Made by a program: the position numbers and the translations under genes. A stretch of 63,482 bases of DNA, the filler included, from Dugesia japonica (Eukaryota): assembly GCA_001938525.1 (NCBI GenBank). It is 6 parts of 6 records of this genome, joined end to end, with 100 filler letters (N's around TTAATTAATTAA, not from the genome) between each part and the next. Parts side by side here need not be neighbours in the genome. Positions count along the whole stretch, not along the records: positions 14,446 to 22,872 come from MQRL01550583.1; 5 more parts are not named here. The stretch is one strand, 5' to 3'. Under the pieces are notes generated by a model. The model saw nothing but the letters and a program-made list of their open reading frames with translations, searched no databases and was not told where the DNA came from. Below, piece after piece: positions 14,446 through 16,189 of this stretch. How positions within the stretch are numbered: position 1 is the first letter of the stretch; each line of letters starts with the position of its first letter.

Positions 14446-15284
14446 TCTATAGGTTTATACTTTACAAACAAATATTGCCGTAGAACCATTACAGCTGTTT
14501 AATAGGGAACAAAATTTTATATTTTTATGTTATTTACAAATTTCAAATTATCATTAATATAAATACTATTTTATTATATTTATAATTTATTATAATCGAG
14601 AGAACTGCCCAGTTCTTCATTTCATATTGTTGCTTTTTTGCTTCAAACAATAATATAATAATGTATAGCCTATATCGATAAAAATGNNNNNNNNNNNNNN
14701 NNNNNNNNNNNNNNNNNNNNNNNNNNNNNNNNNNNNNNNNNNNNNNNNNNNNNNNNNNNNNNNNNNNNNNNNNNNNNNNNNNNNNNNNNNNNNNNNNNNN
14801 AACTTTTAGACGTAACAACATGAAGTTTTATGAGTTTTATGAGATCATTAGACTCTAAAAACGTCTTTGTCAACTTCCATTTCACCAGATATCAATATTT
14901 GTGACAATTATCTTTTAGAAAACTGAAGAGAAGTCGTACAGATTTTAAACATTTTAATGAAATAAGAAAATTTCTAAATAGTGAGCAGCTACCAAAATCC
15001 ACAAATATTCATATGAGTAAAGCATTGGATGCATCTATTGAAACAATGAAGAAAATTATTGAGGCTGATGGCTGCTATGTATAAAAAACATTTTACAGCT
15101 ATTATTTTTTTATAATACAGATTTAAAATTATGTTTATAATTTGAATCAATTAAACAAATACATTTAATTTACAGTATTTTAAAATTTTAAAACGATCGC
15201 GGTTTTTCGAAATAGCTTATATTAATAATTTTAGAATTCGTTAAAAATTTCGATCAAAATTTGCTTTTGTTGGTTTTTGATAAT

Positions 15285-15319
15285 AATTTTATATTTCGAC
15301 TTTGTCTTCGTCAGAAAGT
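15285..15319 (-). ncRNA. Minimal type I hammerhead ribozyme motif (Penelope-type)
   Basis: Minus strand reads ACUUU-CUGACGA-AGACAAAGUC-GAAA-UA-UA-AAAUU: conserved CUGANGA and GAAA boxes, GAC/GUC stem II, stem I pairing. Confidence 0.6.
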
Positions 15320-15320
15320 C

Positions 15321-15355
15321 AATTCCTGCCGAAGACAAAGTCGAAATATAGAAGT
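15321..15355 (+). ncRNA. Second minimal hammerhead motif with a mutated core (CUGCCGA), inverted relative to the first
   Basis: AAUUC-CUGCCGA-AGACAAAGUC-GAAA-UA-UA-GAAGU; stem I UUC/GAA; A->C change in the catalytic box. Confidence 0.5.
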
Positions 15356-16189
15356 ATTATCAAAAACCATTAAACAAGTTTGGATCGAATCTTTTATTTT
15401 AATGAATTCTGAAAAACGATCAATGGTTNNNNNNNNNNNNNNNNNNNNNNNNNNNNNNNNNNNNNNAAAATGTATTTTAATTAATTAATTTTAGTATTTA
15501 AATTTACTTATTATATTATTTATTTTACCTTAAAAATCTATTGAGAATTATTTTTATTGTCTAATACGTTCTATTGTTTCAGTGCCTAAAATATTTTTAG
15601 ACAATATTTTTATTATTTTTCCTCAAAATTTCTTACGCTAAGAAACTCAAAGGACTTTTGTAAAGAAATAAAAATCAAGAAATGGAAGTTAAATTAAATA
15701 TATAAAATTAGTTCAATTAATATCATTATACAACTTATACAATGAGCTGAAAAAACAGTCAAATTATATGATATTTCGTTCAACATTCACATCTTTGATA
15801 AGATATAATTTTTATTTTAAACTAATATTTTACTTTGAGAGTTTTATGAAAAGTGGTTAAATATTTTTGCATAAAATATTTTCTTTTTTAATTATTTACA
15901 AAGCAAAATAAATATTTTTTTTAATATCATCATACTATTACAACTATTGTATCAATATTATGTTAATAATTTGACACTCCAATAGAATCATTGGAAAATT
16001 TGTGAAAACAATTGAAATATTATGTCCTAAACAATTTTCTAAGAATAATTAAATTATTACAGAGCAAATTAATAATTGACTTATGATAATATTCCAATCA
16101 AAATATTCGCTAAAAATAAAAGTTTTCTTATAAGAAATTTTAATTCAAATTTTATTTTCCAAAATTAAGTTTAATAAGTAAAATAATAT

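Follow-up and report, generated by a model that had tools for sequence, protein, structure and literature searches.

A 186-base palindrome at 15229-15414 in the genome of Dugesia japonica carries a minimal hammerhead motif on each strand, the two set back to back, and raises the question of whether it is a ribozyme-bearing unit in its own right or the trace of another element's insertion. We examined it within the window, a stretch of 63,482 nt that is AT-rich throughout (17–32% G+C) and scaffolded with N gaps. The window includes five 100-nt spacers (44 N, a 12-nt linker, 44 N; 14346-14445, 22873-22972, 34361-34460, 44023-44122 and 54272-54371), and the parts that flank them may be non-adjacent in the genome. 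Our reading, which we hold to be probable though well short of certain, is that the palindrome consists of two head-to-head copies of an abundant ~100–140-nt minimal-hammerhead repeat, likely the pseudo-LTR (pLTR) end of a Penelope-like element (PLE) laid down in one insertion, with ribozymes that are predicted to be inactive here.

Structure of the palindrome

The inverted arms (15229-15314 and 15326-15414) are identical at 74 of 91 aligned columns, and at 24 of 25 within the ribozyme part. The longest perfect stem is 21 bp (15290-15310 with 15330-15350). These values bear out an earlier note on this DNA, which had described a palindrome of about 180 bp with inverted arms of about 85 bp. The hairpin fold has a computed energy of -86.1 kcal/mol (z = -17), and none of 200 shuffles was equally stable. 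The palindrome and the sequence at its right edge divide as follows:

15229..15314, minus strand: left arm, an inverted family copy whose 5' side is cut exactly at hammerhead C3 and which stops just past GAATTC, without a tail
15290..15314, minus strand: minimal type I hammerhead with an intact core; stem II of 3 bp with a 3-nt loop
15315..15325, plus strand: 11-nt leader of the direct copy, forming the hairpin loop; 15315 is the family's sharp 5' edge
15326..15350, plus strand: minimal type I hammerhead in which A6->C is a private change
15351..15356, plus strand: stem I 3' strand of the plus copy; 5 bp by family majority, the fourth pair broken here
15357..15414, plus strand: distal part of the right arm, an A-rich linker followed by a conserved distal block with GAATTC at its end
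15415..15428, plus strand: putative start of an optional ~40-nt tail, with an ATG at 15423; matches the copy at 62420-62433

We read the left arm as a copy cut at C3 because, in other copies, the left-arm contigs extend beyond 15314 and there read as the complement of the usual leader. The assignment of 15415-15428 as tail would follow by analogy with elements described in passages of PMC3846280 and PMC11167929. The right boundary of the insertion falls within the N gap at 15429-15466, which likely holds the remainder of the right-arm tail. Directly to the left of the palindrome, 14660-15222 contains a short remnant whose inverted ends are similar and which we take, by eye, to be Tc1/mariner-like; each of the four contig runs used below holds it in many copies.

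Both hammerhead motifs at the locus are predicted to be inactive

The earlier note placed one hammerhead on each strand, and both motifs read as it gave them, except that the plus copy departs from the strict CUGANGA box. In the minus motif C3 is at 15314 and the predicted cut lies between 15290 and 15289; in the plus motif C3 is at 15326 and the predicted cut lies between 15350 and 15351. Both copies have an additional nucleotide lying between 9 and 10.1 and a G10.1-C11.1 pair. The CUGANGA and GAAA-NN-UH boxes are present in the minus copy and in the family majority; the plus copy fails at A6, with C at 15329 where A accounts for 97% of family depth in contig set X3. A6 of the hammerhead matters for activity.

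The complementary stem I flanks that had been described are present as pairing, at just 3 bp in each window copy against 5 bp by family majority. In the plus copy a change at 15354 (T in 98% of X3 depth) breaks the fourth pair. In the minus copy stem I consists of UUU/AAA only (15317-15315 with 15289-15287), and its 5' strand is borrowed from the other copy's leader, an A-run. The U-A closing pair of the left arm was considered as a compensatory change and rejected: that UUU simply complements the A-run of the other copy.

A relaxed minimal-hammerhead descriptor gave two matches in the window, both in the palindrome, and none in 60 simulated windows of the same dinucleotide make-up; the strict descriptor, with the CUGANGA box, retains the minus copy only. 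The proposed model search did not recover a hammerhead family here: an Rfam scan of 12000-22000 returned no hammerhead model at E values up to 10, and a scan of the window returned nothing at gathering score. The window contains no second hammerhead on the same strand that could serve as a dimer partner.

For a single arm alone, the hammerhead arms form with a computed probability of 3e-2 (plus) and 1e-6 (minus); inside the palindrome the corresponding values are 3e-25 (plus) and 5e-27 (minus). In this folding model the mirror arm is predicted to bury both hammerhead folds, in keeping with the suggestion that an antisense arm would inhibit the ribozyme. Both hammerheads at this locus are impaired and predicted to be inactive.

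The arms belong to an abundant family with a sharp 5' edge

We measured the family by placing public contig sets (X1-X3 and X9) and RNA runs (X13, X14 and X17) on the locus. Between 8,913 and 11,278 contigs were placed per run for X1-X3 on a 429-nt stretch that includes the neighbouring repeat. Summed depth over the right arm, which is not a copy number, peaks at 789,617 in X3 compared with 8.5–14.1 for single listed contigs, and the linker motif has five matches in the 63-kb window where 0.19 are expected. Because summed depth is so far above single-contig depth, and because the linker matches point the same way, the data suggest that the arm belongs to a dispersed family of very high copy number, roughly 10^4–10^5 copies.

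In X3, depth rises ~18-fold at 15315. Before this position, 306 contigs (X3) and 210 RNA reads (X14) carry loose ends whose consensus agreement is just 0.43–0.45 (X1, X2, X3 and X14), as for unrelated flanks. The family's 5' edge is sharp and lies 11 nt, or a few further A's, upstream of C3. With a sharp edge and unrelated flanks, most family copies are without a mirror arm, and in X3 the left core reaches a depth of only ~1% of the family's peak. This result speaks against the palindrome itself being a mobile or regulatory unit, as most family copies have unrelated DNA 5' of 15315.

Head-to-head joints are found at other loci at 15314-15317, with partners cut at various places (15372-15398), though many of those listed may stem from failed alignment across the A-rich linker. 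A contig of X3 covers 15295-15407, differing at 19 letters and reaching only 20 letters to the left of the junction, and some RNA reads with other letters cross 15300-15314; similar junctions therefore probably recur at other loci.

Run X9, which carries the same organism label, has zero depth over 15285-15359, compared with about 1e5–7e5 in X1-X3; this coverage hole alone proves no absence of the family. X9 is relatively richer in the neighbouring mariner-like repeat, and lineage, library type or filter may differ. Metagenome scans with a 28-letter family pattern gave no matches. A shorter pattern gave 19, which we treated as chance (none of the 19 has a stem I of at least 3 bp, and none has PLE homology). 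The family is undescribed in the literature searched; an entry in Repbase or Dfam, or in the supplements of a paper, may exist.

Common variation in the family falls where a hammerhead tolerates it

The sites listed in X3 as more than 10% variable within 15326-15350 are N7 (14% A), loop II (14% G), H17 (17% C), and positions 15.2 and 16.2 (12.3% and 12.5%; 15347 T>A and 15348 A>T). All five fall among the 12 positions classed as free (P = 0.015, post hoc), in a test that left out 15329, where only the window differs, and that drew on 22 of the 27 sites variable at 5% or more, with 25 variant rows in all outside this list. The rates of 15347 T>A and 15348 A>T are also matched at 27.5% and 28.9% in X1 (left arm) and in 80/382 and 70/378 reads of X14, and the matched 15.2/16.2 swap is present in all six runs that cover the site (X1, X2, X3, X13, X14 and X17). 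The UA/AU swap keeps the stem III tetranucleotide self-complementary. The stem III palindrome thus appears to covary, as judged from matched frequencies, not from phased reads.

Core-breaking variants also occur: G12->A makes up 9–11% of the depth assigned to the left arm, and A6->G is found in 41/416 X14 reads. Overall, the family appears to vary at hammerhead-tolerated positions, as a hammerhead should. The expectation set out beforehand, that genomic copies would keep the catalytic boxes better than the flanks, is borne out at the level of the family, with the common variants on free positions.

Copies in the window end at one of two places

Two further family copies in the window were aligned with the two arms:

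62351..62456, plus strand: second copy of the family, which lacks the hammerhead core and has the full tail
24691..24756, minus strand: third family copy, its 5' part hidden in an N gap, ending at GAATTC like the left arm

Of these four, two stop at GAATTC (the left arm and 24691-24756) and two continue past it into the ATG-bearing tail (the right arm and 62351-62456). The tail is ~40 nt, its end judged from the 62-kb copy and seven reads of X13 only. The first ATG here lies 72 nt after the cut site. By this comparison the 3' end of the family resembles that of a Penelope pLTR with an optional ~40-nt tail starting at an ATG.

In a single case, 62351-62456, the match to the family starts roughly where the hammerhead is predicted to cut, as if from a cleaved RNA. 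The sequence at 36587-36618 (minus strand) has the family's linker motif preceded by different upstream sequence, which is also found in 138 loose ends of X14; it is probably a sister repeat family.

The Penelope reverse transcriptase remnant is a neighbour

A Penelope RT remnant had been reported 3.6 kb from the palindrome, and it is real:

19018..19673, plus strand: broken Penelope-type RT fragment, from motif C to the thumb/linker

A full HMMER search found 405 proteins, the best match having 52% identity (E = 5e-13). A word-index protein search returned nothing for the fragment, and the RT fragments alone gave no Pfam match. Among six RT homologs tested, RVT_1 is present in all six and GIY-YIG in two, one of them above cutoff. 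A PLE HMM that we built from 26 homologs of at least 500 aa matches over profile positions 486-677 of 785 only, and detects no PLE homology between the palindrome and 19018. No DNA is common to the palindrome arms and the 1.1 kb that takes in the 3' end of the remnant and the sequence past it (19400-20500). The orientation of the remnant would fit a 5' pLTR at the palindrome; a link between the remnant and the palindrome insertion is nonetheless unsupported, and we regard the remnant as a neighbour.

Other features lie near the remnant or elsewhere in the window. About 500 nt past the remnant, on the opposite strand, 20198-20237 (minus) has degenerate hammerhead-like boxes of another type (GAAACGTC). 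Decayed LTR-retrotransposon pol sequence (RVT_1, RNase H) and a weak DDE transposase fragment are found at 10901-13821 and 18075-18350. The gene-like features are a mitochondrial carrier exon with a histidine-rich insertion at 8558-8965 (minus) and a CBP/p300-like acetyltransferase with long open frames (774 aa) at 48048-52080 (minus), the latter only about 49% identical to its nearest listed relatives. A search with this acetyltransferase, with best identities of 49–56%, places the DNA among animals.

Family RNA is sparse

Family RNA reads are few: 956 of 13.6 M records in X14, 75 of 11.6 M in X17 and 31 of 10.5 M in X13. They run in both directions and come mostly from other loci; reads at least 99% alike to this locus number 12 of the 956 in X14 and none in X13 or X17. 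No listed RNA record contains the exact stretch, which is not evidence on expression. The three RNA runs have no pile of read ends at 15350/15351, a result that is uninformative at this low depth. The runs are cDNA and oligo-dT libraries, the latter of which could miss a short RNA. The sparse two-way reads fit passive read-through, and a short RNA is also possible.

Comparison with minimal hammerheads, Penelope-like elements and retrozymes

Passages of PMC4209133 describe minimal hammerheads with an extra base after A9, a G10.1-C11.1 pair, a stem I of about 3–5 bp and a palindromic 15.2-16.2, which cleave as dimers or with help from protein and occur mostly as solo copies and also as opposite-strand pairs. 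For stem III, the text of its Fig. S3 gives a UA-UA version in several animals (a PLE of Schmidtea mediterranea among them), and for stem II a 3-bp form in a nematode PLE (C. briggsae). The family described here shares with the motifs in those passages the CUGANGA box with its extra base, the G10.1-C11.1 pair, the lack of helix III, the palindromic 15.2/16.2 and a short stem I; its copies are likewise mostly solo, with an opposite-strand pair at this locus. It differs in its stem II (GAC-AAA-GUC), which is absent from the text rows of Fig. S3 examined, in the spacing of the paired cores (11 nt here, about 100–700 bp in the passages of PMC4209133) and in its rough abundance, which is above the 2,000–9,000 per genome given there. 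By sequence, the family majority has the features of a minimal hammerhead, and the assignment of the motif to the Penelope type is supported.

According to the parts of PMC8557442 used here, an inverted, 5'-truncated pLTR and an optional 30–40-bp tail are typical of PLEs. In Adineta Pen2a, as presented in passages of PMC3846280, the opening codons of the ORF lie in the pLTR and a 31-bp tail, the pLTR in inverted orientation is shorter, copies are most often arranged head to head, and self-priming is proposed for such palindromes. As in these EN+ PLE insertions (passages of PMC3846280 and PMC8557442), the palindrome has a head-to-head inverted copy at its 5' end that is shorter than the direct copy, a putative tail on one end only and an ATG near that tail. 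Unlike them, it has no ORF or second direct pLTR seen here, and the 5' edge of its family is fixed. The proposal of an inverted pLTR junction is supported: the copies are head to head and the left one is 5'-truncated at C3.

For Anolis Poseidon PAc, passages of PMC11167929 report reverse transcription that starts at two internal sites bounding the tail and extends both target strands, with hammerhead cleavage unneeded. The family resembles PAc, as portrayed in that source's passages, in insertion 3' ends that lie shortly downstream of the hammerhead, in two ends that would bound the tail and in a lack of RNA-seq ends at the cut site, here at low depth. In PAc the hammerhead itself contains the start of the ORF, while the first ATG of the present family comes after the cut site, and PAc is a full tandem element tested in vitro (PMC11167929, in part).

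The alternative label of a retrozyme-like element fares less well. Like the non-LTR retrozymes treated in parts of PMC7229834 and bioRxiv 10.64898/2026.07.22.740005, the family is short, non-coding and PLE-related, with a type I hammerhead. The retrozymes of those sources form tandem arrays, their hammerheads are mostly canonical and their circRNA is abundant; copies of the present family lie dispersed or inverted and have a minimal motif, with little RNA. Because no tandem array is seen at the locus, it is not a retrozyme in the published sense, and the lack of a same-strand partner in the window and the unrelated 5' flanks also tell against that label.

Origin of the palindrome

How two copies might come to lie head to head can be set out as a model. 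The RNA would begin 11–13 nt upstream of the hammerhead, and a Penelope RT-endonuclease would nick AT-rich DNA. Reverse transcription may then begin at an internal site that lies about 60 or about 100 nt downstream of the hammerhead cut, with the tail corresponding to the interval between these two starts; by copying back to the RNA 5' end, the RT would leave short stubs that have a single sharp edge. To that edge a second copy, inverted, would be added in a minority of events. We favour a fold-back of the cDNA end for this step, with priming on both target strands as the alternative. Read on the minus strand, the junction is CAG-GAA-TTGAC-TTT-CTG, the sequence expected from a cDNA end that has folded back; such a hairpin at the cDNA end is unstable alone (z = -0.14), so priming on both target strands is also a possible route. 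The ribozyme would be selected in source elements and then decay after insertion.

Two observations bear on the assignment to a PLE. The sharp 5' edge counts against a pLTR, since it differs from the variable truncation usual for PLEs, and an HMM search found no PLE ORF joined to the family copy at this locus. The family could instead be a non-autonomous mini-element of ~140 nt that stands by itself, has its own start site and depends for its copying on a Penelope enzyme acting in trans, in the manner of a SINE, the palindrome still being an insertion by-product. We consider this rather unlikely, though it accounts well for the sharp 5' edge, the very high abundance and the several hammerhead-compatible variant classes; no ORF is seen after the tail, and animal retrozymes have been argued, in part of bioRxiv 10.64898/2026.07.22.740005, to be non-autonomous PLE derivatives. 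Against it, the RNA reads are few and two-directional and form no pile of ends (a short RNA could escape oligo-dT libraries), and the ATG of the tail fits the start of an autonomous ORF such as passages of PMC3846280 describe.

Explanations in which the palindrome as a whole is the object of interest are much weaker. It is very improbable that it is a functional or mobile unit, whether a fold-back or MITE-like element, a selected switch or a source of hairpin RNA. The hairpin is indeed very stable, and the spanning X3 contig and the RNA reads over 15300-15314 indicate that similar junctions probably recur; the left-core depth, however, means that most copies do not have both arms, the arms differ by 19% with damage in each, closely alike reads are confined to those in X14, and the spanning contig reaches so little to the left of the junction. 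We give almost no credence to an assembly artefact in the form of a fold-back chimera: the locus adjoins an N gap and none of the listed contigs covers the whole stretch, but the arms differ at 17 of 91 columns, and contigs of X1 and X2 run from the left flank into the left arm with, respectively, 3 and 0 other letters. A microRNA precursor is just as hard to credit. Rfam gives weak matches to miRNA families, which are due to the hairpin alone; the best scores 43.6 bits where the gathering score is 135, and none reaches gathering. Two head-to-head copies of a Penelope-type pLTR end, joined in one insertion, remain the reading that we prefer.

The hammerhead type, the inverted junction and the tail have all been described before; more unusual are that the 5' edge is fixed, that the abundance is very high and that X9 shows no cover of the ribozyme part. 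We suggest, tentatively and as something we would sooner doubt than assert, that the tens of thousands of fixed-edge, ~140-nt stubs may be 'strong-stop'-like products of Penelope RT at its 5'-most internal initiation site, or may make up a self-standing mini-element founded on this shortcut, and that the family may be lineage-limited, given X9. If this is true, the many head-to-head junctions would form a natural dataset on cDNA fold-back versus two-strand priming in Penelope integration. Taken alone, this locus is the decayed scar of an insertion, and the family matters modestly. The origin of PLE head-to-head inversions and the role of their minimal hammerheads are open questions in the parts of PMC3846280, PMC8557442 and PMC11167929 drawn on here, and to these the family brings many junctions on which models of insertion may be examined and, for assay, a hammerhead motif among the smallest in nature.
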